A DNA stretch of 64,000 nucleotides from a bacterium (GTDB lineage: Bacteria; Planctomycetota; UBA1135; UBA2386), in NCBI GenBank assembly GCA_030432695.1, contig JAUILN010000011.1, positions 88,950 to 152,949 of the forward strand. Reading direction: 5' to 3'. Every line of letters starts with the position of its first letter. The stretch's first letter is position 1. Of this stretch, positions 24,043-47,979 are shown piece after piece. Made by a program: the position numbers and the translations under genes. The notes under the pieces are model-generated. The model saw only the letters and a list, made by a program, of their open reading frames with translations, was not told where the DNA came from and made no database searches.

Positions 24043-27000
24043 TCATCCCATCAGATCGAAGTCTCCCGCCAGCACCCGATCGAGCCGTCCCGTCCGGAAC
24101 CCCCGCACCGAGTCCCGACACAGCGGCGACGGCTCGTGGCGGTAGCGGCGGACGATGAGGGTGCCGTCGTTCTCGTGGGAGACCTCCTGCAAGCACTCCC
24201 GCGCGATCTTCAAGCGCTTGCTGGGTGAATCGGGCAAGGGCGTGTCAGGCTGGCCGACCACGGTCACCCGCACGCGGATCCGCGGCGCGCGGTCTTCCGC
24301 CTCGCCCGGTTCCAGCACATGCAGTCCCGACTCGCGGGCCAACAACGTGAATGCCCCGAAGCCGGCGACCGACAGGATCATCCGGTAGCTCATCCCGTCC
24401 TGGGCCCCGGCCTCGCGGAGCACCTCGAAGTCCATCCGGCGGCGGCGCGCCCAGCCGCGGTACATCGAACTCAGCTCGCGCGCGAAGGCCTCGGTCGCAT
24501 CCGCGTCACCGCGCGGATCGACGACCGGTTCGACCCGGAGGAAAGCATCGCTGGCGCGCGCCGCCTCCAGTCCGTCGACCGCGGCCCGCAGCAGGTGGAG
24601 CTGCACGGCAAGTCGCTGGGCCACGCCGGTCGGCACGCGATCGCGCGGCTCCACGCCTTCGGCGGTGCCCAGCCGCTCCAACAGCCGCGTCGCGGTGTCC
24701 AGGCCGGTCTCGATGCGGTCGCGATACTCCGCGTCACTGAGCGTCCGGAACCGGTCGTCACGGCTCCAGAAGTCGGGATCCGACATCGCATCCATCGACT
24801 CCTGCTTCTGCGCGGCCCAGGCCGGGTCGTGGACCTTCGACTCGATCTCCTGCCACGTCGTCCGCAACAGCTCGACCTCGCGCCGGCTCCCGGTCGGGTC
24901 GAGCGCGATCCCGCCCAGGGTCGGCGCCTGACCTGAACCGGCCTCGGGCTCCCGCAGCGCCGGGAGTTCCTCGGGCGCGTCCGGATCGACGAATTCGACC
25001 TGCACGCCACGGCCGTCGGAGCGCACGAACAGGAACTGGTCGCCGGTCGGTGCCTTCTGGTTGACGATGGTCCGCGCCAGCGGCGCCAGCAGGAACCGCT
25101 CGATCGTCCGCCGCAGCGGCCGCGCGCCGAGTTCCGGCGAGAAGCCGCGGTCGAGGAAGAACTGCAGTGCCGAGTCGTCCCACTCCACCGCCCACTGCCG
25201 GTTGCGCAGACCGCGCCGCTCGAGCACCAACCGCAGCTCCTTCTCCAGCACCTGGTGCATCTCGGCGCGGCCGAGCGTCCGGAACACCACGATGCGGTCG
25301 ATGCGGTTCAGGAACTCGGCGCGGAACTGCTCGCGCAGCGCCTTCTCGACGCCCTGGTCGAGGCCGGTCGCGGTCGGCGCGGCGGAGAATCCGAGCCCGC
25401 CACCACGCGTCGCCTCGGCACCGACGTTGGAGGTCATGATGACGATCGCGTGACGGAAGTCGGCGAGCCGGCCGCGCCGGTCGGTGAGCCGGCCGTCGTC
25501 GAAGACCTGCAGGAACAGGTCGAAGACCCGGCTGTGGGCCTTCTCGATCTCGTCGAGCAGAACCACCGAGAACGGCTGCTTGCGGATCCGGTCGACCAGT
25601 GCCTCGCCGGCCTCGCGTTCGTCGCGCTCGCCGAGCAGGCGGTCGAGGGCCTCGTAGCCCTGCAGCTCGCTCATGTCGAGGCGCACCATCCGGTCGGGCG
25701 AGCCGAACAGGTAGGCCGCCAGCGTCTTGGCGATCTCGGTCTTGCCGCTGCCGGTCGGGCCGGTGAACAGGAACACACCGAGCGGGCGGGTCGGGTCGGT
25801 GAGCCCGGCCTTGATCATCGCGACGCGCTCGACGAGGCAGGAGATCGCCTCGGGCTGGCCGATCACGCGCTCGTGGAAGTGTCGCTCGAGCGAGGCGAGG
25901 TCGAGACCCTCCCGGTCGTCGAGGATCGACGCCGGCAGACCGGTCAGCCGACCGAGCGTCGCCAGCAGGTCTTCGAAACCGAGCTCGATGCCGGGCGACG
26001 ATGCCGCACCCGGCAACCCCTCCGCCGTCGCCGACAGCAGCTTCGACTGCCGCGCCAGCGACAGGAACCCGAGCAGATTGCCCGGCTGCGCCCGCGCGCC
26101 GAGGAACTGCTGCGCCAGCTGGAACGACTGCTCGACGATGCCGCGCGCCACCAGCGGCCGGCCGTCGGTGCTGAACTTCGCCGACCAGGCCTGGGCCAGT
26201 GCCAGGGTCGGCTCGTCGCCGTACGGCTCGAGCCGAACCGCCTCCATCGCGGCCCGCAGCGCCGGCTTGGACTGCAGCAGCCGCTCGTGCGGCGAAGGCT
26301 GCACCTCCGCGACCGCCAGCACCCGCCCCGACTCCAGGAACGGCATCAACACGTCGAGCAGGCTGGTGGTGCTGAACTGGTGGCGGCCGGCCCAGGCCAT
26401 CTCCTCGAAGCCCGGGATCAGCCAGAGCACGCGCGGTTTCTCGGCGATCGCCGCCAGCAGATCCTTCATCCGCTGCTCGATCTGGCCCACGTAGCTCTGG
26501 CCGGCGAGCAGCTCCACCGCACCCGCCTCGAACACGGTCCAGCCGTCGTCGATCAGCCCCTGGGCGAGCACCTCGAGCGCCACCGTCTTGCCGGTGCCCG
26601 AGTCGCCGACCAGCAGGACCGACCGCGGCACCTCACCGAGCACCAGCCGGCGCAGCTCCGCGACCCGCCGCTCGACCAGTTCGTCGACCACCACCTGCTC
26701 CAGCGCCGGTCTCTTCCACACCTTGCCGACCGTCTCCAGGTAGGCCCGGTCGACCGTCTCGACGCGCGCGCCTTCGAGCACCTCGGCCTGCTCGAGAGCC
26801 CCCGCCTCGCGCAGCAGGCCGAGCAGCCACGCCTTCTTCTCCGGCGCCAGCTCGGCCGGATCTTCCGGCGGTCGATACTCCGTGTCGCCGACCGCGAGCC
26901 GCCGCTGCACGAACTCGCGGAGGACCCGCTCGGCGAACGGCTGGGCCCAGCTCGCGTCGATGGTGTTCAGCACCGTGCTCAGCAGCGGCTGATCGACCCG

Positions 27001-27450
27001 CTCCTCGAGCGCCCGGACCACGAACGAGCGCGCGTAGTAGTTGCCGAGGTTCAGCGTCGGCAGCAGACTCGGCAGGAGTTCGACTTCGTCGCGCCGCTGC
27101 ACCAGCGCCATCGCGGCCAGGGTCGAGATCAGTGCATTGTCGCCGCTCAGGTAGGCGACCATCTCGTCGTGGCCGAACGCCGAGCCGCGCAGGAGGCGCA
27201 CCGCCTCCTTGAAGCCGTCGTGCTCCAGCAGGTCGCGCGGGTGCGCCGCTTGATCGTAGTCGCCGGCCAGCGACGCGGCCATCGCGTACAGCGCCTTGCG
27301 GACCTCGCCGGGGTTGAGCGACGTCAGGTCGACCTGGACCGGCGCGTCGCTCTCGGGCGCCGGATCTTCGGCGCGCTGCCCGATCCGCGACCGCAACAGG
27401 ACCGCGGCCACGAAGACCGCGCCCACCAAGGCTCCCAGCCAGAACTCCAT
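24043..27450 (-). CDS. Membrane-anchored ClpA/B-type double AAA+ ATPase with C-terminal release-factor-like (GGQ-less) domain
   Basis: The N-terminal TM segment is [19 protein letters not shown]. The Walker A motifs are [14 protein letters not shown] and [19 protein letters not shown], and the Walker B is [11 protein letters not shown]. The Clp D2-small motif is [14 protein letters not shown]. The last roughly 300 aa resemble RF2 PCRF/RF-1 regions (DPDFWSRDD...; [16 protein letters not shown]...[43 protein letters not shown]) but lack GGQ. Confidence 0.8.
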   Translation of the reverse strand: [1135 protein letters not shown]

Positions 27451-29716: not shown

Positions 29717-31117
29717 TCACGCACCGCCCGTCGGCCAGCTCAACGGTACGCCATCCAGCGCGGCGAGGGGGCCCACCCGGACCGAGTCCCGGCCCCGCAC
29801 CGATCGCAGGACGGAGAGGCCGCGGTTGCGCAGGTCCTCCGCTTCCCGCTCGGTGATCCAGCGCTCGGCGCACGGCATCGACTCGGCCTCACCGTCCAGG
29901 TGGTAGACCCACACCGGCAAGGCCTCCAGCTCGACGATCTGCCGCGAATCCAGCGCCCAGCCGTGGGTCGCGAAGCCGGACGCGAGGGCGACGACCGCAG
30001 CGAAGACTCCGCTGCCCCAACAGCAGTGCTCGGGATCATCCGGCGGCACGGCTTCCTCGAACCGGAATCGCTCGACCTGGTTGCCGCGCTCCCCGTACGG
30101 CATGCGCAGCAGTATCCGAGGCCCGACCAGGCAGACCTGCGATGGATCGCCAGCCTCGCTGATCCGCACCGGCCCACGGGAGTCCTGCTCGACGAAGAAG
30201 CTGGGGCCCGCGCCGCACAACAGCACGCCGCCAGCACCGCGGGACAGTGCGCTGAGCCGCCCGAGCCACTCCGCAGAGGCGTCGTCCTGCTCGATCGGAT
30301 CCGCAAGGGCGATCACCGACCACGGCTCACCGCCAGCCAATCCCGCTCCCTGATCCACCAGCCGCTTCCACAAGTCGCAGTCGGCCGGATCGCCCTCGGC
30401 CAGCAGGGCGTCCGCGAGTTCCCCGGTAGTCGCATCGAGCACGTAGAGGCCGAGTTCTGCGCCCGCCTCGAGACGCCGCACCAGGAAGCGAAGCCCGGAC
30501 CACCTGGCCTCCAGAGGCCGAAGCTGCTTCAGCACGCGGCGCATCAGCTCCGAGGCGGCGCGGTCCACCATCGCCTGCAACTCCGGGAGGCGCGGGTCGG
30601 CGGCCGGTGTGACGTGCGGCACCACCAGCTCCCGCAACACTGCATCGACGATCTCCGATCCAGTGCCACGATCGGCAGGCCGCTCCGGCGCCTCGGTCGC
30701 CTCCAGCACCGCCTCGAGCATCCCTGCGGCATCCAGATCGGAGGGCGCCGTATCGGCGGGCAGCCGCTGGTCATCCGTGGGCGCATCGACGGACTGCGTC
30801 GCGCCGAGCTCTTCCGCCGCAGCTCGGAACGTCGCCGGGTCGCCCAGTCGGCGGCGGAGGCTGCGAAGTCGCTCGAATCCCGCCAGCCGATCGAACAACT
30901 GGTCCGGATGCATCGCGTCGAACTCGGGGAGCTGCACCGACTGGGTGGTTTCACCGACCTCTTCCAATTCGGCCGTCACGCCGAGTCGACCGAACAGCTC
31001 CTCGAAGTCATCCCGGTCGACGCGGTGAATCCGCCGCTGCGCGACCGGAACGGCCGCGTTGGATCCCCCGGAGAAATCACCGACGACCAGGATCCGGAAT
31101 GCGTCACTTCGCTCCAT
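29717..31117 (-). CDS. Fused TssB-like/TssC-like sheath paralog lacking the TssB N-terminus and the TssC C-terminal domain
   Basis: The start is ATG 31117 (MERSDAFRILVVGDFSGG), with AGGAG 10 nt upstream. The N-terminal 100 aa align with the TssB in this window ([11 protein letters not shown]...[13 protein letters not shown] versus FRILVVGDFSG...IHRVDRDDFEELF). The rest aligns with TssC at four points: [94 protein letters not shown], and [61 protein letters not shown]. Confidence 0.75.
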   Translation of the reverse strand: MERSDAFRILVVGDFSGGSNAAVPVAQRRIHRVDRDDFEELFGRLGVTAELEEVGETTQSVQLPEFDAMHPDQLFDRLAGFERLRSLRRRLGDPATFRAAAEELGATQSVDAPTDDQRLPADTAPSDLDAAGMLEAVLEATEAPERPADRGTGSEIVDAVLRELVVPHVTPAADPRLPELQAMVDRAASELMRRVLKQLRPLEARWSGLRFLVRRLEAGAELGLYVLDATTGELADALLAEGDPADCDLWKRLVDQGAGLAGGEPWSVIALADPIEQDDASAEWLGRLSALSRGAGGVLLCGAGPSFFVEQDSRGPVRISEAGDPSQVCLVGPRILLRMPYGERGNQVERFRFEEAVPPDDPEHCCWGSGVFAAVVALASGFATHGWALDSRQIVELEALPVWVYHLDGEAESMPCAERWITEREAEDLRNRGLSVLRSVRGRDSVRVGPLAALDGVPLSWPTGGA

Positions 31118-31212
31118 GGGGTCTGACTCCTTTCCCGTGGCCCCTCGGCCCCAGGAGTGCGATCTGCTACCTTCGAGCAAGCTCGTTCGGACAATTCACC
31201 AGCCGCAGCACC

Positions 31213-31602
31213 ATGCCGCAACAGGTCGTCGCCGGCGCATCGATGATGTGCACCTTCGGAGCCGCACCGTCGGTCCTCTCCGTCCTGCCCGCGAACCGGA
31301 CGCTCACCGGCGGGCCGCCAGCGGCGAACATCATGGACAACAAGCCCATGGTGAACATCCCGCCTTTCGGCGTGTGCATGAGCCTCGCCAATCCGACCGT
31401 CGCTTCCGCGACCGCGGCTGCGCTCGGCGTACTCACCCCGATGCCCTGCGTCCCGGTGACGGCGGCGCCTTGGGCACCGGGATCGCCGAACGTGATCATC
31501 GGTGGCATGCCGGCACTCAACAACACCTCCAAGTGCATGTGCAATTGGGGCGGAGTCATCTCGATCACCGTGCCGGGACAGTTCCAGGCCATGACCTCGT
31601 GA
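31213..31602 (+). CDS. DUF4280 (PAAR-like) domain protein
   Basis: The sequence MPQQVVAGASMMCTFGAAPSVLSVLP...NIPPFGVCMSLANP...PMPCVPVTAAPWAPGSPNVIIGGMPALNNTSKCMCNWGGVISITVPGQ matches the DUF4280 Cys pattern. ORF 31099..31602 is trimmed to ATG 31213. Confidence 0.85.
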   Translation: MPQQVVAGASMMCTFGAAPSVLSVLPANRTLTGGPPAANIMDNKPMVNIPPFGVCMSLANPTVASATAAALGVLTPMPCVPVTAAPWAPGSPNVIIGGMPALNNTSKCMCNWGGVISITVPGQFQAMTS

Positions 31603-31693
31603 CGTGTCCGGAGAAGACGGCTCATGGCACATGAGTCGTCGAGCCTGCTCCCCGATCCAGGTTCCAGACCCGACTCTCGCCGACTCAGCACCC

Positions 31694-31723
31694 GTCGGCC
31701 CAGCTCTCGTCGGCCCAGCTCTC
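31694..31723. repeat. 15-bp perfect tandem duplication (GTCGGCCCAGCTCTC x2)
   Basis: Direct reading: 31694-31708 and 31709-31723 are identical, followed by the partial third copy GTCGAG. The repeat lies in the convergent intergenic gap between the DUF4280 and DUF4123 genes. Confidence 0.9.
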
Positions 31724-31765
31724 GTCGAGTCAGCGCTGGGCGCGCAGAATCTCGGAAGCAGTCGA

Positions 31766-32338
31766 TCAGCGCAGATCGACGCGACGCGCGACCCCCGGGC
31801 GCTCGGCCCTCGAGAAATCGAGCAGCGCCCCGCCGTCCTCGCCCTCCATCACGAACGACCGGGCAGGTCCGAACACCAACGCGAACTCCTCCGCCGTGCA
31901 CGTGGGCAGGTAGAGACGCAGAACCCGAGGATCGTAGAAGCGGAAATAGAGCACCCGACCGTCGGGCCCCTTGACCCGGAGCAACGTGCGGAAGTGGCGA
32001 CGCACCGACTTCAGGTCGCCAGAAGCCCGAACGAAGATCCCCCAGGAGCGACCCCAGCCCTGTTCGAGCAGCCAACGGGTGAACTCCGACTCCTCGTGAA
32101 GCCGCACGAGGTAGGGCGCAACGCGCTGTTCGCTGGGATGCAACTCCCCCGCGAACAGGCACTCGGCTTCGACCCGATGCGTGTCGAGTTCGCGCACCAG
32201 CTCCTTCACACGTGCGCCATCGAGAACCGCCCAGGTCGGCACCTCGGGATCTGCGAACAGCAGATCCAACAGATGCTCGACCCGCGGGTTTCGCAAGCCG
32301 GTGGAGTCAGGACCAGGGCCTCTTGATTCGTGCACCAT
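31766..32338 (-). CDS. DUF4123 T6SS effector adaptor/chaperone (Tap/Tec-like)
   Basis: The sequence WAVLDGARVKELV...APYLVRLHEESEFTRWLLEQGWGRSWGIFVRASGDLKSVRRHFRTLLRVKGPDGRVLYFRFYDPRVLRLYL matches the DUF4123 pattern. The gene sits directly downstream of vgrG. The start is trimmed to ATG 32338. Confidence 0.85.
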   Translation of the reverse strand: MVHESRGPGPDSTGLRNPRVEHLLDLLFADPEVPTWAVLDGARVKELVRELDTHRVEAECLFAGELHPSEQRVAPYLVRLHEESEFTRWLLEQGWGRSWGIFVRASGDLKSVRRHFRTLLRVKGPDGRVLYFRFYDPRVLRLYLPTCTAEEFALVFGPARSFVMEGEDGGALLDFSRAERPGVARRVDLR

Positions 32339-32369
32339 GGATGATCGCCCTGCGTCGGGATCCCGCGTC

Positions 32370-34634
32370 TCACCCACAACTCTCACAGAACGGCGCCCCG
32401 GTATCCGATGCGGCCTGCATGGCCGCGGCCTGGGCGGTGTCCCTCGACGCCTCGATGGAAGTCCACTTCAGGGTCATCTTGTCGGCACCCGGCTGCCCGG
32501 CCTGGTAGGCGTCCGCATCCGCGGACGCGATCTTGTCGAGAGGCGGATCGGGCGGCTTCGGCTTGCCGGGAGCAGCAGGCGTCCCGGGGGCCTGGGGACT
32601 GCATCCCGACCCCGACCCGGCCGCCCCGCCACTGTTCACCTTCACCATCGGACCGGAGATGTCGACGCCGGCCGGTCCGATCACGACGAAGCCGGCGCCG
32701 GCCTTGAGGGTGAGCTGCATCCCGGCCTCGATGACCACGTTCATGCCACCCTTCACGTGCACGTTCATGCCACCCTCTGCGGCGAGGTTCATGCCCGCCT
32801 TCAGGTTCGCGTTCTTGCCGGACTGAACGTGGAGGTCCATCCCCGCCTTCACCTTCGAGGCCTGGGCGACATTCAGCTCGTGGTTGCCACCGAGCTTCGT
32901 GACCTGATCTCCGCCCACGTCGACCCCCTCGGTGCCGCCGACCTTGCGGGATCGATCCCCGGCAACGCTCTCCTCGTGGGCCCCGGCGACGTCGACGAGA
33001 CGGTCGCCGCCGATCGTCTCGTGCACGTCACCGCCGGTCTCCTCGAACGCGTTCCCGACGACCTTCCGGTGCGAGTCCTTACCCACCTGGTCGAACCGGC
33101 ACTCCACCACATCGTGGTGTTCGTCCTTCTGGGCCCGGATGTAGATGTGCTCCTTGCCCTTCAGGTCCTCGAAGCGGATCTCGTTGATCGCATCGGCCGC
33201 CCCCTTCTTGGTGGCCCTCGACCGGAATCCGGACTGGGTCTTGTTCGCCGGGAGTTCGAAGGCCGGCATCGTGTTGGCGTTGTAGACCGCGCCGGTCACG
33301 AGCGGCCGATCCGGATCCCCGTCGAGGAACTCGACCACCACCTCCTGCCCGACGCGCGGCAGCACCTGCCATCCCCACTTCTTGCCGGCAACGCCCTGGA
33401 CGACACGCATCCAGCACGAACTCTTGTCGTCGTACTTGCCGCGGCGGTCCCAATGGAACTGCACCTTGATCCGCCCGTACTTGTCGGTGTGGATCTCCTC
33501 CCCGGCCGGCCCGACGACGATGGCGGTCTGCGGACCGGACACCCTCGGCCGCTCCGTCCGACGCTCGGGACGGAAGGGCACGCTGGCGGGAATGCAACGG
33601 AAGCGGTTCGAGTAGCCCGTACCACCACCGGACTGAAGGAACGAACCATCCCTCGCCGAGTGTTCGATGCTCGTCATCACGAACGACTGGCCGTCGTCGC
33701 TCGCGATCCGCGGTGCGACGAACTTGAACCTGGTCGCCAGACCGATGCGGAAACAGCCCCCGACGCCGGACACGACGTCGTGACGACATTCCTCTGCCTC
33801 CATCCGCACCTTGGCGAGTTCGTCGCCGTCGGCTCGGGCGTGGTAGCGACCGGGATACTCGAACCGCTCGAACGCGCCCGCGCTCGGGATCGAGACGACC
33901 GTATCGCTCTGTGAGAGCAGCCGTGTGGTCGGAGCCTCGAAGTCGAAATCGGCGTGCCCCCAGCGGCCGGACACGAACTCGTAGCCGTGTTCCCACGAGG
34001 AGACCTGCTCGGTGCTCGGCTCGCTGGACGTGAATTCGAGTTCGGGTGTCGCTGCCTCCGCGTACGCGGCGGTGCTGTCGGCCAGCACCATGACGTGCCG
34101 CCCCGATTCGAACCGGAAGGAGTAGAAGATCCCGGACTCCTCGAGCAGGCGAGAGACGAAGTCGAAGTCGGTCTCCCCCATCTGCACGCAGTATTCGCGC
34201 TTCGGGTAGGAGCCAGTGATCCCGGACACGTCGAATGCGTCGAAGCCGGCATCCTGGAACACCTGCTCGCAGATCTGCGTGACCGTCATCTCCTGGAAGA
34301 TGCGGTGGTCGGAGCGCTTGGTGAGCAGCCAGAACCAGGGGACCAGCTCCGCCCGGTAGCTGGCGACGTCTTCGGATGCGAAACCGGTGAAGACGATCCG
34401 ACGGACGATGCCGCTGAACTCCCGCGGATCGCCGTGTTGCGGCTGGATGGCGAAGCTGACCGCCTTGCCGACGAGCGAGCCGACGTCTCGGATCACCTTC
34501 TCGGCGAGCAGGTCGAGGTCGAACTCGAAGGGCGCGGACACCGCCTCCCGCCCCAGGAAGGACCGCAGCAGGAAGGAGTCCTTTCCCAGCGGGGTCGAGA
34601 CGATCAGGAACCTGCCATCCTGGGTGAAGGTCAT
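32370..34634 (-). CDS. vgrG: VgrG (TssI) spike protein with about 85-aa C-terminal tail
   Basis: The start is ATG 34634 (MTFTQDGRFLIVSTPLGKDSFLLRSFLGREAVSAPFEFDLDLL). VgrG motifs are YRAELVPWFWLLTKRSDHRIFQ, YCVQMGETDFDFVSRLLEESGIFY and GRIKVQFHWDR. A gp5-like beta-helix follows (GGMNVHVKGGMNVVIEAGMQLTLKAG). Confidence 0.95.
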   Translation of the reverse strand: MTFTQDGRFLIVSTPLGKDSFLLRSFLGREAVSAPFEFDLDLLAEKVIRDVGSLVGKAVSFAIQPQHGDPREFSGIVRRIVFTGFASEDVASYRAELVPWFWLLTKRSDHRIFQEMTVTQICEQVFQDAGFDAFDVSGITGSYPKREYCVQMGETDFDFVSRLLEESGIFYSFRFESGRHVMVLADSTAAYAEAATPELEFTSSEPSTEQVSSWEHGYEFVSGRWGHADFDFEAPTTRLLSQSDTVVSIPSAGAFERFEYPGRYHARADGDELAKVRMEAEECRHDVVSGVGGCFRIGLATRFKFVAPRIASDDGQSFVMTSIEHSARDGSFLQSGGGTGYSNRFRCIPASVPFRPERRTERPRVSGPQTAIVVGPAGEEIHTDKYGRIKVQFHWDRRGKYDDKSSCWMRVVQGVAGKKWGWQVLPRVGQEVVVEFLDGDPDRPLVTGAVYNANTMPAFELPANKTQSGFRSRATKKGAADAINEIRFEDLKGKEHIYIRAQKDEHHDVVECRFDQVGKDSHRKVVGNAFEETGGDVHETIGGDRLVDVAGAHEESVAGDRSRKVGGTEGVDVGGDQVTKLGGNHELNVAQASKVKAGMDLHVQSGKNANLKAGMNLAAEGGMNVHVKGGMNVVIEAGMQLTLKAGAGFVVIGPAGVDISGPMVKVNSGGAAGSGSGCSPQAPGTPAAPGKPKPPDPPLDKIASADADAYQAGQPGADKMTLKWTSIEASRDTAQAAAMQAASDTGAPFCESCG

Positions 34635-34757
34635 GCCGAGCGCAAAGTCTACCTCCCGATCGGGCGGTACGGCCACGCGAACGGCGCGATCGAAAACACG
34701 CTGCGGGCCCGACTGCCCGTCGTTGGGAAAACGGTGGCGAGATATCCTCTCGGGACC

Positions 34758-35540
34758 ATGAGTGGGAACCCCGCCTTCATCGCTTGCCTCCTTGGAGCCT
34801 GTCTCGGGCTTGCCTCGTGCAAGTCGATCGAGGAGTCCGAGGTCCACGCGGCCTATATGCACACCGATCTGCAGGGCGATGTGGCGGTCGGACCTTCGAG
34901 CGGCGGCGCCAATCTCGCAGCGCGTCGCAATGACATCACCGGCGATCTGGGGATCGACGATTCCCAACCGGCGATCCTGTTCGGCGGCAGCATGAAGACT
35001 CCCATCGGCAGGTTCGGCGGATCCATCTTCTGGTTCGAGGATTCCGGCAGCGGCACGCTCGCCAGGGACTTCGGCGATATCCCGATCGGGGCCACCGTCG
35101 CCTCCGACTTCGAGTTCCTGAATGCGAAGACCTACTGGGTCTACGACGTGCTCGAGGGCCGCAACTGGCGGGTCTCCCCGGGCGTCGCGGTCGACTTCTT
35201 CGACTCATCGACCACGGTCCGCGCCCAGAATGCGAGCCAGGCCTTCGAAGAGGTCGACGTCTTCGCCCCCGTCCCGCTGGCGTTCCTCGATGCCCAGCTC
35301 GACCTGGCGGACTTCTCGCTCAATGCGCAGGGCGGCGGGATGCAGATCACGCTGACCGACGGCCTCGGAACCTACTGGGACGCCGAGGCCAGCGTCCGCT
35401 TCCGCCCCACGGACCAGGTCGACTTCCGAGCCGGATACCGCTTCCTGTCGATGGACACCGGCGGTGACGCGGGCAGCCGCAACGCCGAGGTCGACCTGCA
35501 GGTCCAGGGCTGGTTCCTCGGAGGCGGGCTGCACTTCTGA
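34758..35540 (+). CDS. Outer-membrane beta-barrel-like lipoprotein
   Basis: ATG 34758 gives MSGNPAFIACLLGACLGLASC (lipobox LASC). The sequence shows an alternating beta-strand pattern and a C-terminal ...QVQGWFLGGGLHF ending in Phe, as in OM barrels. This is the C-terminal part of track ORF 33954..35540. Confidence 0.7.
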   Translation: MSGNPAFIACLLGACLGLASCKSIEESEVHAAYMHTDLQGDVAVGPSSGGANLAARRNDITGDLGIDDSQPAILFGGSMKTPIGRFGGSIFWFEDSGSGTLARDFGDIPIGATVASDFEFLNAKTYWVYDVLEGRNWRVSPGVAVDFFDSSTTVRAQNASQAFEEVDVFAPVPLAFLDAQLDLADFSLNAQGGGMQITLTDGLGTYWDAEASVRFRPTDQVDFRAGYRFLSMDTGGDAGSRNAEVDLQVQGWFLGGGLHF

Positions 35541-35621: not shown

Positions 35622-36479
35622 CTACCAATCCGAACCGCTCGTATCCCGCCGTTGCGGAGTCCCGCCCAGTCCGATGCTGGAGGCTTCGCGCAGTCGCTCT
35701 CCGACGAAACTGCCGACGACCGCGCGATCGTACGAACCCGACTCCGCCAGGATCAGTAGTCTCCGCAGGCTCGGGCAGCGATAGCGGTTGCAGGTAGCAG
35801 AACGGAGCGCACGCGGCTGAGCGCAGCCGGTTTCGGTGTGGAACACGCAACTCCCCGCGATGCTCCGCTCCGGCAAGTAGGACTCGAACTCCCCGAGGAG
35901 TTCCTCACGGCTCCGGCCCGGTCGACCGCGGACGACCCGACGCACCGACTCGAGATCGTGGAAGGCCTGCGTGCCGCCTCGCTGGCAGCATGATCCGCGA
36001 CACAGAGAACAGGCGGTGCTTTCGAGGTCCCCGGGAGCGGCCTCGGTCGGGGCCATGCCGTGGAAACCGGCCTGCTCCGGCGGCCGCGCATCGACCGAGT
36101 CCTCATCGGGAATCGCCATGGCCTCGTCGAGGATCGCGGCGAGGTGCTCGAGAAACCGCTGCGCGCGCTCGGGATGAAGCGGCACGAGCGGTTCCTCCAG
36201 GCCGGGAACCGGCGCCAGGAGGACGTCTCCGGAGTCGGCCGACGCGTCTCGCGCCCGCACCTCGGACAGGGCCTGCTCCTTCGCCGCGAAGTCGGCCTCC
36301 TCGGCCTCCCGCTCGCGTCGCAAGCGCTGGTGCACCTCGGACGTCGCAGCATCGACCGAGCGGCTGATCTGATGACCCAGCCTGCAGGACACCGATCCGC
36401 AGGTCGTGTCGAACCGCACGACCGCCGGTTCGAGCGACACACCACACTCTGAACAGTGGGTCCTACGAACAGGCAACAT
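35622..36479 (-). CDS. CxxCxxCC (UPF0153/YkgJ-like) putative Zn/Fe-binding protein with N-terminal Cys4 ribbon and acidic coiled coil
   Basis: The start is trimmed to ATG 36479 (MLPVRRTHCSECGVSLEP...CGSVSC). The C-terminal CSLCRGSCCQRGG...SCVFHTETGCAQPRALRSATCNRYRC matches the CxxCxxCC metal-chelating domain pattern. The gene lies in the same orientation directly downstream of hcp. Confidence 0.6.
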   Translation of the reverse strand: MLPVRRTHCSECGVSLEPAVVRFDTTCGSVSCRLGHQISRSVDAATSEVHQRLRREREAEEADFAAKEQALSEVRARDASADSGDVLLAPVPGLEEPLVPLHPERAQRFLEHLAAILDEAMAIPDEDSVDARPPEQAGFHGMAPTEAAPGDLESTACSLCRGSCCQRGGTQAFHDLESVRRVVRGRPGRSREELLGEFESYLPERSIAGSCVFHTETGCAQPRALRSATCNRYRCPSLRRLLILAESGSYDRAVVGSFVGERLREASSIGLGGTPQRRDTSGSDW

Positions 36480-37198: not shown

Positions 37199-39892
37199 TC
37201 AACTCAACTCGTAGCTGAAGCCGCCGTCCTCGCGGACATCGACCCGGGCGCCAGTGATGGCACTCCCCGCCGCCATCCTAGCGAGGAACTCGGCGGACAG
37301 CTCGGGAAGCAGGGTGCGCGACAGAATGTGATCCACGTTGCGGGCACCGCTCTCGACCTCGGTGCAGCGATCCAGCACCCGCTGGACGAACCCCGGCGTC
37401 CAGGTGAACTCCGCCCGGTAGTTGGCCCGCACGCGCCGTTGGATCTTGCCGAGCTTGAGTTCCACGATCCCGCGCATCACCTCGTCGCTCAACGGGTAGT
37501 AGGGAAGGACCTGGCAGCGCCCCAGGAACGCCGGCTTGAAGGTCTTCAGCAGCTCGGGATGCATCGCCGTCACGAAACCGTCGGCGTCGGGCATCGTCTC
37601 CGGGTCGGCACAGAGCGACATCACCGCTTCGGTGCCGGCATTGGTGGTCATGATGATCACCGTATTGCGGAAGTCGATATCACGACCTTCGCCATCCTTC
37701 AGAGTGCCCTTGTCGAAGACCTGATAGAAGATCTCCTGCACGCCCGGGTGCGCCTTCTCGAGTTCGTCGAGCAATACCACCGAGTAGGGCTTGCGACGAA
37801 CGGCCTCGGTGAGCACACCGCCCTCCCCGAATCCGACGTAGCCAGGCGGCGAGCCCATGAGGAGCGAGACCTTGTGCTCCTCCTTGAACTCGCTCATGTT
37901 GATGACCGTCATGTTCTGCTCGCCGCCGTAGAGCTCTTCGGCGAGCGCGATCGCGGTCTCGGTCTTCCCGACGCCGCTGGTGCCGGCAAGCATGAACACG
38001 CCGATCGGGCGCTGCGGGTCCTTCAGATTGGCCCGGGAGATCCGGATCGACTGCGCGATCGCATCGAGCGCATGGGACTGTCCGATGACCCGCTCGCCGA
38101 GCCGCTCCTTCAGGGCCAGCACGCTCCGGATCTCGTCGGCGAGCATCCGACCCGCCGGGATTCCGGTCCAACCCGAGATGACCTCGGCGATCGCCTGACC
38201 GGTGACTGCGGGATGAACCAGCGGAGCATCACCCTGCAACGCCTTCAATTCCGCTACGAGCGCTTCGAGCTGGCGCCGCAGCTCGGCCCGCTGTTCCGGG
38301 GAGAGTTCCGCGTCGACCGGATCACCTGCCGCCTGGGCATCGGCCTCGTCCGGCCCCCCATCGGTCCGGCTCGCGGCGAGCTGCTCATGGAGCGCCCGAA
38401 TCGCATCGACGAGACGCTTCTCTTCGGCCCATCGCGCCTCGAGGGCCGACAACTCCGCGGCCGCAACAGTGCGCTCGGCTTCGATCTCCTCGAGCCGATC
38501 CCCGTGCAGGCCCTGCACCGCGTGCTCGCGCTGCAGCACGCGGGACTCCGTCTCCAGGCGCGCGATCCGGCGATGGCAATCGTCGATGGCTGCCGGCGTG
38601 GAGGATTGGCTGAGCGCGACCCGGGCGCACGCGGTGTCGAGGAGACTCACCGACTTGTCCGGCAACTGCCGCCCGGCGAGGTAGCGGCTCGACAGGCGCA
38701 CCGACTCCTGCAGAGCCTCGTCGAGGATGCGCACGCGATGGTGTTCCTCCATCACCTTGGCGAGACCGCGCATGATCTCGATCGCCACCGCCTCGGACGG
38801 TTCCTCGATCTTCACCACCTGGAAGCGCCGGGCGAGCGCGGCATCCTTCTCGAAGTACTTCTTGTACTCCGCCCAGGTGGTGGCTGCGATCGTCCTCAGC
38901 TCCCCACGAGCGAGCGCGGGCTTGAGAAGATTGGCGGCATCACCCTGACCGGCCGCCCCCCCCGCACCGATCAGGGTATGCGCCTCGTCGATGAACAGAA
39001 TGATCGGCTCGGGCGACGACTTGACCTCGTCGATGACCCCTTTGAGCCGATTCTCGAACTCGCCCTTCACACCGGCACCGGCCTGCAAGAGGGACAGGTC
39101 GAGCGTCCGCACCACGACTTTCTGCAACGCCGCCGGCACGTCGCCCTCGGTGACCCGCAGAGCGAAGCCCTCCGCAACTGCGGTCTTCCCGACTCCTGGT
39201 TCGCCGGTCAGGATCGGATTGTTCTGCCGACGCCGGGTCAGAATGTCGATCAACTGACGGATCTCGTCGTCACGACCCAGCACCGGGTCGATGCCTCCGG
39301 TCCGCGCGCGCTCCGTCAGGTCCAGCGTGTACTGGTCGAGATTCGGCGTCGCGCCGCCGGTCTTGCGCGCGCTCGGGCCCTTTCCACCCCCCTCCGCGGC
39401 CGGAGCGGACGCCGACTCGGTCGACTCGGCCTCGCACGTGGCGAGCCGTTGGGCCAGGGCCTCCGCCTGCACCTTGTTGAACTCCGTGGAGGCCTCCTTG
39501 GCCTGGCGCGCCAGCGCATCCACGGACATCAATGCCGACAGCACGTGCCCCGTATGCGCCGCCCCGGCCTGGTGGTCGAGCGACGCCACCAACCACGCCT
39601 CACGAGCGAGGTCCACGACCGCCGGAGACAGGGACGGAGGCCGCGAATTGCCGGTCTTGCACTTGTCGAGTGCGCGCTGGAGCCCGCTCCGCAAGGCGTC
39701 GAGGTCGACATCGAAACTACGCAGCGCGGCTTCCATCACGGAGCCCGTGGCCTCGAGGACCTTGATCAGCCAATGCTCGATCTCGACGTTGTAATGAGTG
39801 CGCGAGAGGCAGAGACCGGCAGCGCCTTCCAGCGCCCTACGGCCCTCGGGACTCAGGCGAGCGACGAGCGACTTGAGGTTCACTGAGGACAT
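37199..39892 (-). CDS. clpV: ClpV (TssH) AAA+ sheath-recycling ATPase
   Basis: The start is MSSVNLKSLVARLSPEGRRALEGAAGLCLSRTHYNVEIEHWLIKVL. The Walker A motifs are LTGEPGVGKTAVAEG and MLAGTSGVGKTETAIALA. At 897 aa, and adjacent to hcp and tssG, it fits ClpV. Confidence 0.95.
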   Translation of the reverse strand: MSSVNLKSLVARLSPEGRRALEGAAGLCLSRTHYNVEIEHWLIKVLEATGSVMEAALRSFDVDLDALRSGLQRALDKCKTGNSRPPSLSPAVVDLAREAWLVASLDHQAGAAHTGHVLSALMSVDALARQAKEASTEFNKVQAEALAQRLATCEAESTESASAPAAEGGGKGPSARKTGGATPNLDQYTLDLTERARTGGIDPVLGRDDEIRQLIDILTRRRQNNPILTGEPGVGKTAVAEGFALRVTEGDVPAALQKVVVRTLDLSLLQAGAGVKGEFENRLKGVIDEVKSSPEPIILFIDEAHTLIGAGGAAGQGDAANLLKPALARGELRTIAATTWAEYKKYFEKDAALARRFQVVKIEEPSEAVAIEIMRGLAKVMEEHHRVRILDEALQESVRLSSRYLAGRQLPDKSVSLLDTACARVALSQSSTPAAIDDCHRRIARLETESRVLQREHAVQGLHGDRLEEIEAERTVAAAELSALEARWAEEKRLVDAIRALHEQLAASRTDGGPDEADAQAAGDPVDAELSPEQRAELRRQLEALVAELKALQGDAPLVHPAVTGQAIAEVISGWTGIPAGRMLADEIRSVLALKERLGERVIGQSHALDAIAQSIRISRANLKDPQRPIGVFMLAGTSGVGKTETAIALAEELYGGEQNMTVINMSEFKEEHKVSLLMGSPPGYVGFGEGGVLTEAVRRKPYSVVLLDELEKAHPGVQEIFYQVFDKGTLKDGEGRDIDFRNTVIIMTTNAGTEAVMSLCADPETMPDADGFVTAMHPELLKTFKPAFLGRCQVLPYYPLSDEVMRGIVELKLGKIQRRVRANYRAEFTWTPGFVQRVLDRCTEVESGARNVDHILSRTLLPELSAEFLARMAAGSAITGARVDVREDGGFSYELS

Positions 39893-45962: not shown

Positions 45963-47456
45963 TCAGCCCCCCTTGGGGATCCGCGCAACGAGGCGCATCG
46001 ACGTGGTCAACTCTTCCATCTGCAGCCAGGGCCGCAGGTAGGCCACCGCGTTGTACGACCCGGGAGCGCCCGGGATCTCCGCGACCTTCACCGCAGCCTC
46101 CGCCAACGGATACTTGGCCTTCATCTCCTGGCCCGCTCCCTGGTTGGCGTTGACGTAGTTCTGGATCCAGTTGTTGAGCCAGGTCTCGCAGTCGGTCGCC
46201 TCCATGAAGGAGCCGATCTTGTCGCGTGCCATCACCTTCAGGTAGTGCGCGAACCGCGAGGTCGCCATCAGGTAGGGCAACCGCGCCGAGATCGCCGCGT
46301 TCGCGGTGGCGTCCGGGTTGTCGTACTTCTTGGGGCGCTGGCTGGTCTGGGCACCGAAGAACACCGCGTAGTCGGTGTTCTTGTAGTGGCAGAGCGGCAG
46401 GAACCCGCACTTGCTGAGTTCTGCCTCGCGCCGGTCGGTGATCGCGATCTCGGTCGGGCACTTGGTGTCCGCGTCGCCATCGTCGGTCGTGAAGGTGTGG
46501 GTCGGCAGATTCTCGACCTTGCCGCCGCCTTCGGCTCCACGGATCGCGGTGCACCAGCCGTACTGCGAGTAGGCACTCGTCAGGGTCGTACCCATCACGT
46601 AGGCCGCGTTCATCCAGCAGTACTGGTCGTGCGCGAGCGCCCCGGATGCCTCGGAGTCGATCTCCTCGTAACCGAACTCCTCGACGGGCTTGGTCTCCGC
46701 ACCGTAGGGCAGGCGCGCGAGCGCGCGCGGCATCGTCAGGGTGACGAAGCGGGAGTCCTCCGAGTCGCGGAACGACCGCCACTTGGTGTATTCCTGCGAC
46801 TCGAAGATCTTCTCCAGGTCACGGGGCTTGGAGAGTTCCTCCCACGAGTCGAAGCCGAAGAATCCCGGCCCCGGCGAAGTGATGAACGGGCAGAACGCTC
46901 CGGCCGCGACATTGGACATCGACGACAGCAGCTCGATGTCGTCGGGGTGGTTGGTGATCTCGTAGTCACCGATCAGGGCGCCGTAGGGCTCGCCGCCCGG
47001 GGTGCCGAACTCGTTCTCGTAGAGCTTCTTCCAGGTCTCGCTCTGGTCGAACTCCACCGCCTTCGACAGGTCCTTGAAGACGTCCTTCTTCTTGGCGTTG
47101 AACATCCGGATCTTCAGGCCGGAGCCCGTCTCGGAGTTCATCACCAGATGGTGGAGGCCACGCCAGGAACCCTCGAGCTTGCGGAAGGGCTCGGAGTGCA
47201 TCACCGCGGCGAGCTGCTTCGACACGATCCGGTCGAGTCCCTCGATCGCCTCCCGGAAGGTGACGGTGAGGTTCTTGCTCCAGGTCACCGTGCCGCTCAT
47301 CGCCTCCTGGGCGAGCGTGGCGAGCAGCTCCTGGGCCCGCGAAGGCTCGGTCTGCTTGGTGGCTGCGATCGCCTGATCGAGGAGGCTGACCTCGGCGGCG
47401 TCCTGGGTGATCTCGGCGCCGGCCTGCGGCGACTGCTGGGCTTCGTTCTCGGCCAT
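45963..47456 (-). CDS. tssC: TssC (VipB) sheath large subunit
   Basis: The protein is 497 aa. Motifs are [65 protein letters not shown] and [20 protein letters not shown]. The stop lies 2 nt... correction: the gene start lies 2 nt downstream of the tssB stop. Confidence 0.95.
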
Positions 47457-47457: not shown

Positions 47458-47979
47458 TCACGCTCCTCCGTCGCTGGATTCCGACTCGCCGCCGATCCCC
47501 AGTTCCTTCTGGAGTCGACTCATCTCCTCGGGGTTCTGCAACACCCGCTCGAGCAACCCTTCGAGATCCTCCGAGCGGTCCACCTTGGCCATCAGGTCGT
47601 TCAACCTGGCCCGGGTCTCGAGGAGCTTCTTCAGCGGCTCGATCTGTTCCGCCACCCTGGCCGGATCGAAGTCGTCCATGCTCTTGAACTTGAGCTGGAC
47701 CGCCATCTCGCTGTCGTCGCCGGCGATGGTGTTCTCGACCTTGAAGTTCAGCTCCGGCGCGGTCTTCGCGATCACCTCGTTGAAGTTGTCGCGGTCGATT
47801 TGAACGAACTTCCGGTCCTTCAACGGCTTCAGCGGCTGCTCGGGATTCCCGGAGAAGTCCCCCATCACACCGACCACGAAGGGTAGCTCGCGCTCGACCT
47901 GCGCCCCCCCTGTCTCGACCTCGTAGGTGATGTGCACGCGCGGTTTGCGAACTCGCTTCAACTTGTCGTGGATGCTCAT
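47458..47979 (-). CDS. tssB: TssB (VipA) sheath small subunit
   Basis: The protein is 173 aa. [33 protein letters not shown]...[13 protein letters not shown] matches TssB. A GAAGGAGAGG RBS lies upstream. Confidence 0.95.

Follow-up and report, generated by a model that had tools for sequence, protein, structure and literature searches.

A single-chain TssB-TssC-like sheath paralog without handshake elements, and its possible relation to ClpV

A gene for a 466-aa single-chain TssB-TssC-like protein, which we call FUS, lies on the minus strand at 29717..31117 of the window, that is, of the whole stretch of 64,000 nucleotides that was analysed. It was recognised from its open reading frame, its Pfam VipA and VipB matches and its AlphaFold2 (AF2) model; its stop codon occupies positions 29717-29719 of the same strand. 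The full open reading frame (29717..31180, minus strand) would code for 487 aa if counted from a TTG, the 466-aa form starting at ATG 31117. We discarded the TTG start at 31180 in favour of this ATG on account of the ribosome-binding site, of the N-termini of the closest homologs and of the gene call in an independent assembly. The Shine-Dalgarno sequence GGAAAGGAG, read directly in the DNA, is found at 31127..31135 (minus strand), 9 nt before ATG 31117, and the reading frame displays a coding-type GC3 of 0.82. The preliminary description of this DNA had advised looking for a sequencing frameshift: the frame is intact, and because the independent Logan assembly ERR3428543 encodes the identical 466-aa product, followed by the same downstream neighbours, a frameshift or an assembly artefact is unlikely. 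A divergent intergenic region of 95 bp (31118..31212, from the gene coordinates) separates the FUS gene from a DUF4280 gene, and presumably holds a putative promoter proper to FUS. An esterase gene follows the FUS gene at a distance of 96 nt.

The window comprises the usual sheath genes as well. Canonical tssB (47458..47979, minus strand) matches Pfam T6SS_VipA over its full length, with 211 bits. Canonical tssC (45963..47456, minus strand) has both VipB and VipB_2 by Pfam, and its N-terminus reads with the motif LLDQAI. A second full-length tssC paralog (44293-45789), again with VipB and VipB_2, is 39% identical to the canonical copy, and clpV/tssH (37199..39892, minus strand) was identified by Pfam and by alignment of its N-domain. 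Beside the FUS gene, Pfam recognises a PAAR-like DUF4280 gene (31213-31602, plus strand), a DUF4123 adaptor gene (31766-32386, minus strand) and a VgrG gene (32370-34967, minus strand), a spike module spanning 31213..34967. The placement next to PAAR-like, adaptor and VgrG genes had been described correctly, except that the DUF4280 gene is on the opposite strand, divergent from FUS. There is no effector gene downstream of the adaptor on the adaptor's strand in the window. That FUS might itself be the effector or cargo of the DUF4123 adaptor is unlikely: its fold is that of a cytoplasmic structural protein, a toxin domain is lacking, and the Eleftheria adaptor is followed by genes of its own. 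A tie to a 1135-aa AAA+ protein (24043-27450) was rejected as well, the esterase gene and an enolase-superfamily gene lying in between, and the only matches of that protein at other loci overlapping clpV.

FUS consists of three segments. The TssB-like half (residues 1-103; 30809..31117, minus strand), delimited by BLASTP, Pfam and PDB profile matches, contains the strands that enter the domain-2 sheet and the TssC-pairing helix; the beta1 arm is absent. A flexible linker follows (residues 104-152; 30662..30808, minus strand), homologous to the TssC N-terminus and recognised from AF2 pLDDT and from BLASTP, which pairs FUS residues 112-171 with TssC 2-59. The TssC-like core (residues 153-466, corresponding to TssC ~45-370; 29720..30661, minus strand), supported by Pfam, PDB profile and Foldseek matches, is made of the domain-3 helices and the domain-2 sheet, and stops where TssC domain 1 (VipB_2) would start. 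The profile searches that had been proposed for the two halves both succeed: T6SS_VipA (PF05591) matches residues 7-93 over profile positions 28-122 of 155 (26.7 bits, for a gathering score of 24; E 5.5e-6), and VipB (PF05943) matches residues 182-445 over positions 5-291 of 301 (E 3.7e-30). By BLASTP, FUS residues 1-93 align with residues 28-128 of the window's TssB (29% identity, E 8e-8) and residues 112-444 with residues 2-362 of its TssC (24% identity, E 5e-22). A profile built from the family agrees, reaching E 5e-84 to 8e-72 with solved TssC chains, in alignments that end near TssC residue 340-370, and about 1e-15 with solved TssB/VipA chains (residues ~22-125). The union of a TssB-like N-terminal region and a TssC-like core in one open reading frame is thereby upheld by Pfam, BLASTP, profiles and Foldseek alike, and FUS is a true single-chain TssB-TssC paralog.

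It is not an orthodox member of either parental family. It has the PF05943 domain of TssC and the fold of TssC domains 2 and 3, and lacks the gpW/gp25-like C-terminal domain (VipB_2, PF18945, beta11-13): Pfam found no PF18945 match in FUS, whereas both full-length TssC of the window have one. A full-length VipA with beta1 arm and C-terminal part is likewise lacking, FUS residue 1 corresponding to TssB residue 28. Scores against the NCBIfam equivalogs fall far below the cut-offs, at 105.1 bits for TssC (TIGR03355, cut-off 271.5) and 23.8 bits for TssB (TIGR03358, cut-off 97.25). The loss of the TssB N-terminal strand that had been noticed from the sequence is borne out by this alignment start. 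That of the TssC C-terminus is real too, yet larger than the ~110 aa first given, amounting to ~135 aa (residues 363-497, the whole VipB_2). To these two losses must be added the TssB C-terminal ~45 aa (129-173), so that FUS is without the TssB N-terminal strand, the TssB C-terminal part and the whole TssC C-terminal domain.

In solved sheaths, the handshake between subunits is built by TssB beta1 and by TssC beta11-13, the latter forming domain 1 (Salih 2018, PMC5807055). The segments absent from FUS are therefore, as the preliminary description had supposed, inter-subunit handshake elements (Salih 2018, PMC5807055), and, from the loss of TssB beta1 and TssC beta11-13, a non-polymerising role can soundly be inferred on structural grounds. 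What is left folds well: the AF2 model of FUS has a pLDDT of 87.8 and a pTM of 0.85, with lower values (pLDDT 49-59) over residues 110-150, where a short helix is predicted at 131-141. Its best Foldseek matches are TssC1, VipB and Myxococcus xanthus TssC (E 4e-16 to 5e-13), the TssC-fold matches including 5n8n_B, 3j9g and 5urw (E 4e-16 to 5e-14), followed by weak matches to PVC and Streptomyces CIS sheath chains (E about 1e-3). FUS is a folded single-chain sheath protomer restricted to the middle (domain 2) and outer (domain 3) layers.

Comparison with known sheath proteins makes this clearer. Canonical TssB/TssC (VipA/VipB, HsiB1/HsiC1) are homologous to FUS over TssB 28-128 and TssC 2-362, with the same domain-2 sheet and domain-3 helices, and have in common with it the motifs GDFSG, DRDxF, HPD, ExxWRGL, PRxLxRLPYG and FxFEE as well as the N-terminal TssC helix. 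They form a heterodimer, by contrast with FUS, a single polypeptide devoid of domain 1, of the TssB C-terminal ~45 aa and of TssB beta1, which therefore cannot form the handshake mesh of solved sheaths. Extracellular contractile injection systems possess specialised end-of-sheath paralogs, such as Afp2-4 and Pvc2-4, encoded alongside the main sheath gene. These have retained their handshake domain and become part of the sheath; the idea of an extra sheath-family paralog is common to them and to FUS, but in FUS the handshake domain has been lost. Second full-length tssC paralogs, known from Tateyamaria clusters (Suria 2022, PMC9515649) and present at 44293-45789 of the window, also place an extra TssC-family gene in a single T6SS cluster; they differ from FUS in having full-length VipB and VipB_2, in keeping domain 1 and in having no TssB part.

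The nearest described relative is TssCL ('long TssC') of roseobacter T6SS, identified in silico with two VipA domains, of which the first is all but identical to the TssB of the cluster, and one VipB domain, and reported only in Alphaproteobacteria (Suria 2022, Front Microbiol, PMC9515649). The preliminary description knew of no T6SS component with this architecture; one has nevertheless been described, since the C-terminal module of TssCL is homologous to FUS. That module associates a divergent short VipA with a VipB devoid of VipB_2, as FUS does, and is 27% identical to FUS over residues 7-465 (tblastn). In Leisingera, Pfam places VipA at 800-895 and VipB at 981-1264 of TssCL, with the order and boundaries seen in FUS, and the L. 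methylohalidivorans open reading frame of 1654 aa joins a full TssB, acidic 21-aa repeats and a FUS-type module. Both proteins coexist with separate, normal tssB and tssC genes; the TssCL cluster also has a normal clpV, and the gene adjoins vgrG. The differences are considerable, however. TssCL is a protein of ~1,650-1,700 aa (1654-1684 aa) that begins with a complete TssB close to the cluster's own TssB, continues for some 800 aa with acidic repeats of 21 residues each and ends with an acidic tail, whereas FUS, with one short VipA, is the bare 466-aa module without arm, repeats or tail, and has an LLDEII-type helix where TssCL has a DFAxL-type one. A literature search for a functional study of the family, with subscription journals outside its coverage, found none, the only relevant paper being that on TssCL (Suria 2022).

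For want of a database name, we define the short-form family, for this analysis, as TssB(~1/28-128)-linker-TssC(~2-370) in one chain of ~450-620 aa that ends 45-50 residues past 'PC[AST]E' and has no VipB_2; in FUS, PCAE occupies residues 415-418 and the chain ends at 466. Family representatives number 2976 at E<=1e-3, 1778 at 1e-10 and 748 at 1e-30, the ~750 at the last threshold being clusters at 50% identity. The best 150 relatives are all 453-530 aa long and colinear with FUS, and in the family alignment 12 columns are invariant and 25 nearly so. Hundreds of full-length relatives at 30-45% identity, in many phyla, have both termini and the invariant residues in common. They come from Acidobacteriota, Planctomycetota, Gemmatimonadota, Verrucomicrobiota, Desulfobacterota, and Alpha-, Beta- and Gammaproteobacteria, and the module is present in at least eight phyla. 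The FUS family is widespread across T6SS clusters, and not peculiar to this window.

In one respect FUS is atypical of its own family. The preliminary description pointed to the absence of both termini; this is right for FUS, but as a family trait it defines a minority subclade, 87% of relatives keeping the beta1-like N-terminal arm of TssB. In such arm-bearing relatives the GDFSG glycine stands at position 25-60, and in four of the loci (L011, L013, L072, L001) the tblastn alignments begin at TssB residues 1-17. The arm is unstructured in the AF2 model of an arm-bearing relative. Its retention points to docking, either on TagJ or on an acceptor of handshake strands, which would be TssC domain 1 or TssE.

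Genomic context was collected by a scan using a hand-designed degenerate DNA pattern over W367...PCAE...G433, validated on the window, with chance matches in three of 120 stretches (L046, L064, L087). Among the 121 loci, the closest homolog of FUS, from a Planctomycetota MAG, is 43% identical. Most family genes belong to T6SS clusters, often with vgrG immediately downstream, and some are solitary. Another T6SS gene is found within the 8-kb slice at 60 of 121 loci; slices of this length are short, and many of them end right beside the gene. The commonest neighbour is vgrG (median gap of its neighbour cluster, 311 nt), which at 29/121 loci follows directly on the same strand, no more than 1.5 kb away, in a sample enriched in Rhodobacterales, where cluster order is fixed by descent; clpV is upstream on the same strand at 10/121. 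In some Acidobacteriota and Gemmatimonadota loci (L058, L108, L114, L115) the gene has as neighbours tssB-tssC, encoded on its own strand, or tssK. The T6SS clusters of the family also hold normal tssB, tssC and clpV, and complete clusters surround the family gene in Leisingera and Eleftheria. Some members are true orphans, with 10-kb flanks free of T6SS genes, among them L001, adjoining rpoBC, ribosomal genes and rpsA, a Siccirubricoccus locus (L003) and a Bryobacteraceae locus (L004). All-against-all clustering of neighbouring open reading frames found no recurrent non-T6SS partner beside the orphan copies, the identifiable recurrent clusters being T6SS genes, chiefly vgrG, or likely antisense frames of GC-rich T6SS genes.

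The feature that brings us closest to a function is in the linker. Aligned to the TssC segment 'SLLDQAI' and supported by family motif counts, an LLDEII-like motif, MLEAVL (residues 133-138; 30704..30721, minus strand), falls within helix 131-141, where TssC has its ClpV-recognition helix, and the helix is left unpacked in both predicted models. The LLDEII motif of that TssC N-terminal helix was defined, and TssC-ClpV coevolution reported, by Forster 2014. Of 148 family linkers, 65 contain a strict LLDEII-like motif, where shuffling would lead one to expect 2.1. In all 16 clusters compared, the class of the helix motif agrees with that of the ClpV groove or of TssC in the cluster concerned: an LLDEII-like helix accompanies an uncharged ClpV groove or an LLDQIV-type TssC in 11/11, and a DFAxL helix accompanies an R6/D87 groove or an EFASLL/DFSALL-type TssC in 5/5, this charged-groove class stemming from few independent lineages, mainly Alphaproteobacteria plus one betaproteobacterium. 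At the level of sequence, this pairing mirrors the TssC-ClpV coevolution of Forster 2014, and part of the concordance could come from the gene and its cluster having descended together. The window fits the pattern: its ClpV N-domain, aligned to ClpV1-N (4uqw) and ClpV-N (3zri) and interpreted against Forster 2014, has an uncharged groove of the V. cholerae type (L6, S87), so that FUS, with its putatively accessible helix, would belong to the LLDEII class as far as sequence tells. In ClpV1/TagJ-type systems, the motif may serve another partner, because ClpV binding there does not require the TssC N-terminal helix (Forster 2014).

The preliminary description had suggested a cap, an initiator, a length or assembly regulator, or a decoy; for the arm-less form, a ClpV-recognition helix of the matching class speaks, indirectly, for a mimic directed at ClpV or for a role of the decoy type. 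The reading that we prefer, tentatively and at somewhat less than even chances, is that FUS is a non-polymerising mimic of the sheath protomer, recognised by ClpV and tuning sheath disassembly and recycling. Without domain 1, FUS would neither accept nor donate handshake strands, and would therefore be unable to join the sheath mesh or to contact the Hcp tube. Most likely it would be a soluble or peripherally attached mimic, recognised by ClpV through the exposed helix. It might then vie with the contracted sheath for ClpV, hold or recruit ClpV near the machine, or be a ClpV client itself, so that its effect could be that of an inhibitor or that of a recruiter. Arm-bearing relatives and TssCL might act in the same way, anchored to the sheath or to TagJ. 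Counting against the mimic is precisely the arm: a pure soluble decoy would not need arm-based docking, and 87% of relatives keep it. The true orphans, with no T6SS gene in 10 kb of flank, count against it too. Extending the proposal to the whole family is more doubtful still: it would make of the FUS family an unrecognised accessory component of T6SS, a built-in ClpV decoy, recruiter or 'disassembly mark' controlling sheath turnover, with a helix coevolving with the ClpV/TssC class, and with TssCL carrying the module into the sheath via its fused TssB.

The same arm is the best argument for another role, unlikely in our opinion, in which the protein is a sheath subunit specialised for the end position, as cap, 'ring 0' or chain terminator, and binds to TssE or to one end of the sheath. 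Arm-bearing relatives would attach themselves by the TssB beta1 arm; otherwise attachment would rely on the tri-helical packing of domain 3. The module, being without domain 1, would block further polymerisation or mark the end. Besides the prevalence of the arm, homologous to beta1 and unstructured in AF2 as expected of a donated strand, this would suit the four loci where the gene adjoins tssB-tssC or tssK, the complete TssB of TssCL, which could co-polymerise, and the conservation of the domain-3 helices of vertical contacts. The arm route is closed to the window's protein, however, because it has no arm. Furthermore, beta1 is exchanged within a closed ring in solved sheaths (Salih 2018, PMC5807055), which leaves no obvious free acceptor at sheath ends, and a ring made only of FUS would have no acceptor sheet. 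Nor does a terminal subunit need a ClpV helix matched to the class of the cluster. We know of no T6SS-end structure that shows such a subunit.

Gene order inspires a further explanation, an improbable one: a spike or baseplate factor working with VgrG/PAAR, as a loading platform, chaperone or spacer to the first sheath ring, with no action on ClpV. It has in its favour the 29 loci out of 121 with vgrG directly downstream, and, in the window, the vicinity of DUF4280, DUF4123 and VgrG with an adaptor that has no effector gene downstream. Yet nothing in the fold or in the conserved motifs hints at binding to VgrG, Pfam detects no effector-like domain in FUS, the gene commonly stands elsewhere (behind clpV, ahead of tssB, at the side of tssK, or as an orphan), and the Rhodobacterales that enrich the sample owe their cluster order to descent. 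We consider highly improbable a function independent of T6SS, with a co-opted sheath-core fold whose location in T6SS clusters would be historical. The orphans, and the half or so of the 8-kb slices with no T6SS neighbour, would be explained at once, but slices of 8 kb are short and often end beside the gene, no recurrent non-T6SS neighbour emerged, and the TssB/TssC motifs persist in orphans down to the ClpV-type helix (SLLDRVL in P0006, SLLADML in P0016). Finally, the idea of a decaying, non-functional remnant of a tssB-tssC duplication, suggested by a protein shorter than both its parents and by a gene at the cluster edge with a small intergenic region of its own, is effectively refuted by conservation data, hundreds of full-length relatives having common termini and invariant residues, next to an intact frame with a good RBS and coding-type GC3 and a confident AF2 fold.

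What does this mean for T6SS biology? Firing depends on the time and place of TssBC sheath polymerisation and on recycling by ClpV. To our knowledge, the modulators identified so far, TssA, TagA, TagB and TagJ, are not sheath homologs. In present annotations, genes of this family go under the names 'TssC', 'ImpC' or 'sheath large subunit', so that genome surveys can overcount T6SS or tssC. A single published observation, TssCL, described as confined to roseobacters, is extended here to a module found across many phyla, and what is new is a linker helix at the position that TssC would offer to ClpV, matched in class in 16/16 clusters. If the proposed role is true, the family would be a third conserved sheath-family protein, non-polymerising and yet keeping surfaces recognised by partners, and would offer a novel way of acting on sheath dynamics, in hundreds of species that include many soil and marine phyla with an unexplored T6SS biology.

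The gene encoding the single-chain TssB-TssC-like protein of the window (29717-31117, minus strand) is intact. Its reading frame spans 29717..31180 and makes 487 aa when counted from a TTG, while the 466-aa form begins at ATG 31117, preceded by GGAAAGGAG with a spacer of 9 nt; this start agrees with the closest homologs. Third-position GC is 0.82, typical for real genes in this 69% GC window. An independent Logan assembly (ERR3428543) gives an identical 466-aa product, then the same esterase and enolase-superfamily genes. A frameshift artefact, against which the preliminary description advised a check, is thus rejected. The gene stops at a TGA (29717-29719) only 96 nt from the start of the next gene, so that downstream there is neither trace of nor room for the lost C-terminal domain.

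That one reading frame joins a TssB-like N-terminal region to a TssC-like core is upheld for both halves by several types of comparison. In Pfam, residues 7-93 match T6SS_VipA above its gathering score (profile positions 28-122 of 155), residues 182-445 match VipB (profile 5-291 of 301, E 3.7e-30), and VipB_2 is not found. In BLASTP alignments with the window's own canonical proteins, residues 1-93 match TssB 28-128 and residues 112-444 match TssC 2-362. A family profile built from 49 members recovers solved TssC chains with E from 5e-84 to 8e-72, always stopping near TssC 340-370, and, at about 1e-15, residues ~22-125 of solved TssB/VipA chains. The AlphaFold2 model, made with the family alignment, is confident (pLDDT 87.8, pTM 0.85) except for a flexible segment, 104-152, which holds a short helix at 131-141; all nine significant Foldseek matches of this model are T6SS TssC chains. 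The protein falls far under the cut-offs of the NCBIfam equivalog models for both TssC and TssB.

What is missing can be read against the sheath of Pseudomonas aeruginosa (Salih et al., 2018, PMC5807055). There, the inner layer (domain 1) is a handshake sheet made of TssC beta11-12 with donated TssC beta13 and TssB beta1, the middle layer (domain 2) is a sheet of seven strands (TssB beta2-3, TssC beta1-4 and beta8), and the outer layer (domain 3) bundles one TssB helix with two N-terminal TssC helices. According to the alignments and Foldseek matches, the window protein spans those parts of TssB and TssC from which domains 2 and 3 are built, and has none of domain 1. We confidently predict a domain-2 plus domain-3 protomer in one chain, devoid of all handshake elements. 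The preliminary description was right that the TssB N-terminal strand is missing (residue 1 aligns with TssB 28) and that the TssC C-terminus is absent, although the latter loss is ~135 rather than ~110 aa, and its inventory of two missing termini was incomplete: besides the TssB beta1 arm, the last ~45 residues of TssB are lacking too. Its structural reasoning was sound.

The protein belongs to a large family. Of the 55 proteins recovered by a word-indexed search, nearly all carry PF05591 and PF05943, measure 448-618 aa, and have names that go no further than 'ImpC' or 'contractile sheath domain-containing protein'. When 1.84 billion cluster representatives were searched exhaustively with phmmer, 2976 matched at E<=1e-3, 1778 at 1e-10 and 748 at 1e-30, the best 150 all being 453-530 aa long and colinear over almost the full query. 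As the window's canonical TssC scores only 85 bits against it in pairwise BLAST, the E<=1e-30 set is probably made mostly of the fusion family. In the alignment, the blocks GDFSG, VDRDNFD, HPD, EAAWRGL, PRFLLRLPYG and FxFEE are shared with TssB and TssC, while LRxLRRRLxxPxTFxxAA at the junction, PCAE and an end near LxGxW are specific to the family. A degenerate DNA pattern designed over W367...PCAE...G433, which at the protein level fits 84 of 203 members of the family but neither of the window's canonical TssC proteins, was scanned against one genome per GTDB species and found in at least 120 stretches. Among the matches listed, 117 of 120 stretches carry the gene and three are chance matches; the hosts include many Acidobacteriota, Gemmatimonadota, Planctomycetota, Desulfobacterota, Binatia and Eisenbacteria, Verrucomicrobiota/Lentisphaerota (Opitutales, Chthoniobacterales, Kiritimatiellae, Victivallales), Alphaproteobacteria (Rhodobacterales, Rhodospirillales), Betaproteobacteria (Rhodocyclales, Rubrivivax) and Gammaproteobacteria.

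Association with type VI secretion is frequent. When four loci retrieved through protein identity (L001-L004) are added to these 117, another T6SS gene is seen in 60 of 121 loci, within slices of only 8 kb. On the same strand, vgrG lies directly downstream (<=1.5 kb) in 29 of the 121 and clpV upstream in 10; further loci have a same-strand tssB-tssC pair beside the gene, or an adjoining tssK. The cluster is complete on a Leisingera methylohalidivorans plasmid (tssA-B-C-hcp-tagJ-tssE-F-G-H ... family gene ... vgrG-PAAR-tagH-tssK-L-M-tagF) and on a plasmid record of Eleftheria terrae (tssA-B-C-hcp x4-tssE-F-G-vgrG-DUF4123 ... tssK, then the family gene). Three loci are true orphans over flanks of 10 kb, among them one adjoining rpoBC and rpsA. 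No recurrent non-T6SS neighbour was found across the compared loci. In two orphans (L001, L004), the fusion gene has an ECF sigma factor and an anti-sigma gene as neighbours no more than ~2 kb away, perhaps by coincidence, ECF sigma genes being abundant in those phyla.

In the window, the gene is the last T6SS-related one of a cluster read from the minus strand, and is followed by the unrelated esterase and enolase-like genes. The cluster comprises the gene for an FHA protein (57678-59876), a 262-aa reading frame (56929-57717), tssK (55527-56906), tssL (54768-55523), tssM (50399-54754), tagF (49462-50478), tssA (48095-49249), tssB (47458-47979), the canonical tssC (45963-47456), directly followed by a second full-length tssC with VipB and VipB_2 (44293-45789), tagJ/impE (43458-44303), tssE (42907-43380), tssF (41061-42896), tssG (40012-41061), clpV (37199-39892), hcp (36570-37124), a 310-aa reading frame (35622-36554), vgrG (32370-34967) and a DUF4123 adaptor gene (31766-32386). 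The second TssC is 39% identical to the canonical one over residues 58-495, the N-terminal ~57 aa differing, and there is no second tssB in the cluster, which thus has three TssC-family genes; two tssC genes have been noted in Tateyamaria clusters (Suria et al., 2022, PMC9515649). The TssM-like frame is unusually long (1451 aa), matches only IcmF-related_N in Pfam at the threshold used, and overlaps the tagF call by ~80 nt. The 262-aa and 310-aa frames have coding-type GC3 and no Pfam match; the latter has one weak tblastn match, near clpV in another locus (L067). A PAAR-like DUF4280 gene (31213-31602, plus strand) converges on the DUF4123 gene, leaving this adaptor with no same-strand effector gene after it; DUF4280 and the fusion gene diverge from a shared stretch of 95 bp (31118-31212). 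Two genes past the end of the T6SS cluster, a 1135-aa AAA+ protein (24043-27450, minus strand) combines a ClpB-like D2 module (AAA_2, ClpB_D2-small) with an additional P-loop region at the N-terminus and, at the C-terminus, a match to a PCRF-like (release-factor) domain; its sole matches in other loci overlapped clpV.

The flexible segment deserves attention. Residues 132-141 (GMLEAVLEAT) face, in the BLASTP alignment, the N-terminal helix segment of TssC. In Vibrio cholerae, ClpV has a groove of uncharged residues in which it binds this helix of VipB via LLDEIM/LLDEII, while in P. aeruginosa the ClpV1 groove residues are charged (R6, D87), TssC1 has EFASLL in place of LLDEII, and TagJ, which co-occurs with this charged class, binds TssB residues 8-30 (Forster et al., 2014, PMC4239648). 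The window's ClpV has L6 and S87, its canonical TssC LLDQAI; the cluster thus mixes TagJ/ImpE with an uncharged-groove ClpV and an LLDQAI-bearing TssC, a combination reported to be rare (Forster et al., 2014). Of 148 family linkers, 65 contain a strict LLDEII-like pattern, where 2.1 would be expected from the same linkers shuffled. In both AlphaFold2 models the helix, of low confidence and with disorder on either side, is not packed into the fold. All 11 clusters with an uncharged-groove ClpV or LLDQIV TssC (L015, L017, L047, L048, L058, L081, L085, L106, L114, L116 and the window) have an LLDEII-like helix in the family protein (LLDRIL, ILDQIV, LLDDIL, LLDAVL, LLEDAM, LLDMIL, VLDAIL, LLDEMI, ILDQIL, MLEAVL), and all five with an R6/D87 ClpV or EFASLL/DFSALL TssC (L002, L083, L090, Leisingera L126, Eleftheria L127) a DFAxL-like one (LSDFARL, LSDFAAL, LSAFQQL, LDDFARL). 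This concordance, 16 of 16, is explained in part by shared descent, since the charged class comes from few lineages; shared descent leaves unexplained a short motif kept across many phyla in a linker otherwise variable in length and sequence.

The ends of the protein vary. Among 148 members with clear anchors, 129 (87%) place the GDFSG glycine at position 25-60 and so have an N-terminal extension, absent in 19 (13%), among them the window protein with its nearest relatives. It is homologous to the TssB beta1 arm: tblastn matches to the window TssB begin at residues 1-17 (L011, L013, L072, L001 and others). In the model of the arm-bearing P0006 (pLDDT 88.5), residues 1-20 are unstructured (pLDDT ~50), as would be expected of a strand that pairs only in trans. 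Lacking both terminal segments, a true description of the window protein, is therefore a minority condition in its family; what all members have in common is that domain 1 is lost. Of the 41 proteins in the DFAxL class, 39 end in a long acidic tail with DLDALLASL-type repeats, as does none of the 74 in the LLDEII class. This tailed subfamily, with ~600-aa forms (P0008, P0011, P0020, P0028, P0041, P0053 and others; loci L002, L003), has tails of 100-180 aa, with three 'DLDALLASL' repeats in the members displayed in alignment A1; its identified hosts are Alphaproteobacteria and the betaproteobacterium Eleftheria.

Full-text literature search returned one relevant description of the module, the 1,684-aa 'TssCL' of Leisingera and other roseobacters, known from sequence analysis only (Suria et al., 2022, PMC9515649). 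In L. methylohalidivorans (plasmid NC_023136.1, PLSDB copy), the annotated CDS of 1370 aa, starting at 17592, lies within a 1654-aa frame (16740-21704 of L126) open from ATG 16740. Read from there, it encodes first a full TssB with its beta1 arm, then ~800 aa of acidic repeats of 21 residues (32% D+E and <1% K+R in the stretch sampled), the module of short VipA and VipB seen in the window protein, and an acidic tail; most of its 36 VLxGL/LDxLL-type motifs fall within the repeats. The window protein is thus the C-terminal module of TssCL in a short, stand-alone form, and this module is far more widespread than that paper reported. The preliminary claim that nothing of this architecture had been described holds only in part: the module had been noticed once, inside TssCL. 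Its fusion to a genuine TssB is 'Rosetta stone' evidence suggesting that it works at or near the sheath.

What might such a protein do? It is encoded with a complete T6SS, and bears on a flexible linker a helix matching, at the sequence level, the type recognized by ClpV. The most likely mechanism, which we put forward tentatively, is that it could neither join the sheath lattice nor contact the Hcp tube and would act as a protomer mimic recognized by ClpV, and so tune how the sheath is disassembled and recycled, whether by competing, by storing or recruiting ClpV locally, or as a client; in arm-bearing or tailed relatives TagJ might possibly recognize it as well. A terminal or capping subunit, docking via the beta1 arm or via domain-3 helical contacts, is attractive for the 87% of members that carry arms but is not available to the arm-less window protein; it seems to us unlikely, if worth keeping in mind. 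Frequent vgrG adjacency would fit a factor associated with the spike or baseplate, which we consider improbable, and the orphan copies a T6SS-independent role, slightly more improbable still. A decaying paralog, contradicted by the conservation of the family, is hardly credible. The remaining likelihood belongs to mechanisms outside this list.

Compared with the module embedded in TssCL, what is new is the stand-alone short form and its distribution across many phyla, the existence of arm-bearing and arm-less states and of tailed and untailed subfamilies, and a ClpV-type helix matched in class to its cluster. The fusion protein is not categorically new, yet it is conserved, linked to the T6SS, and comes with a concrete, testable hypothesis.
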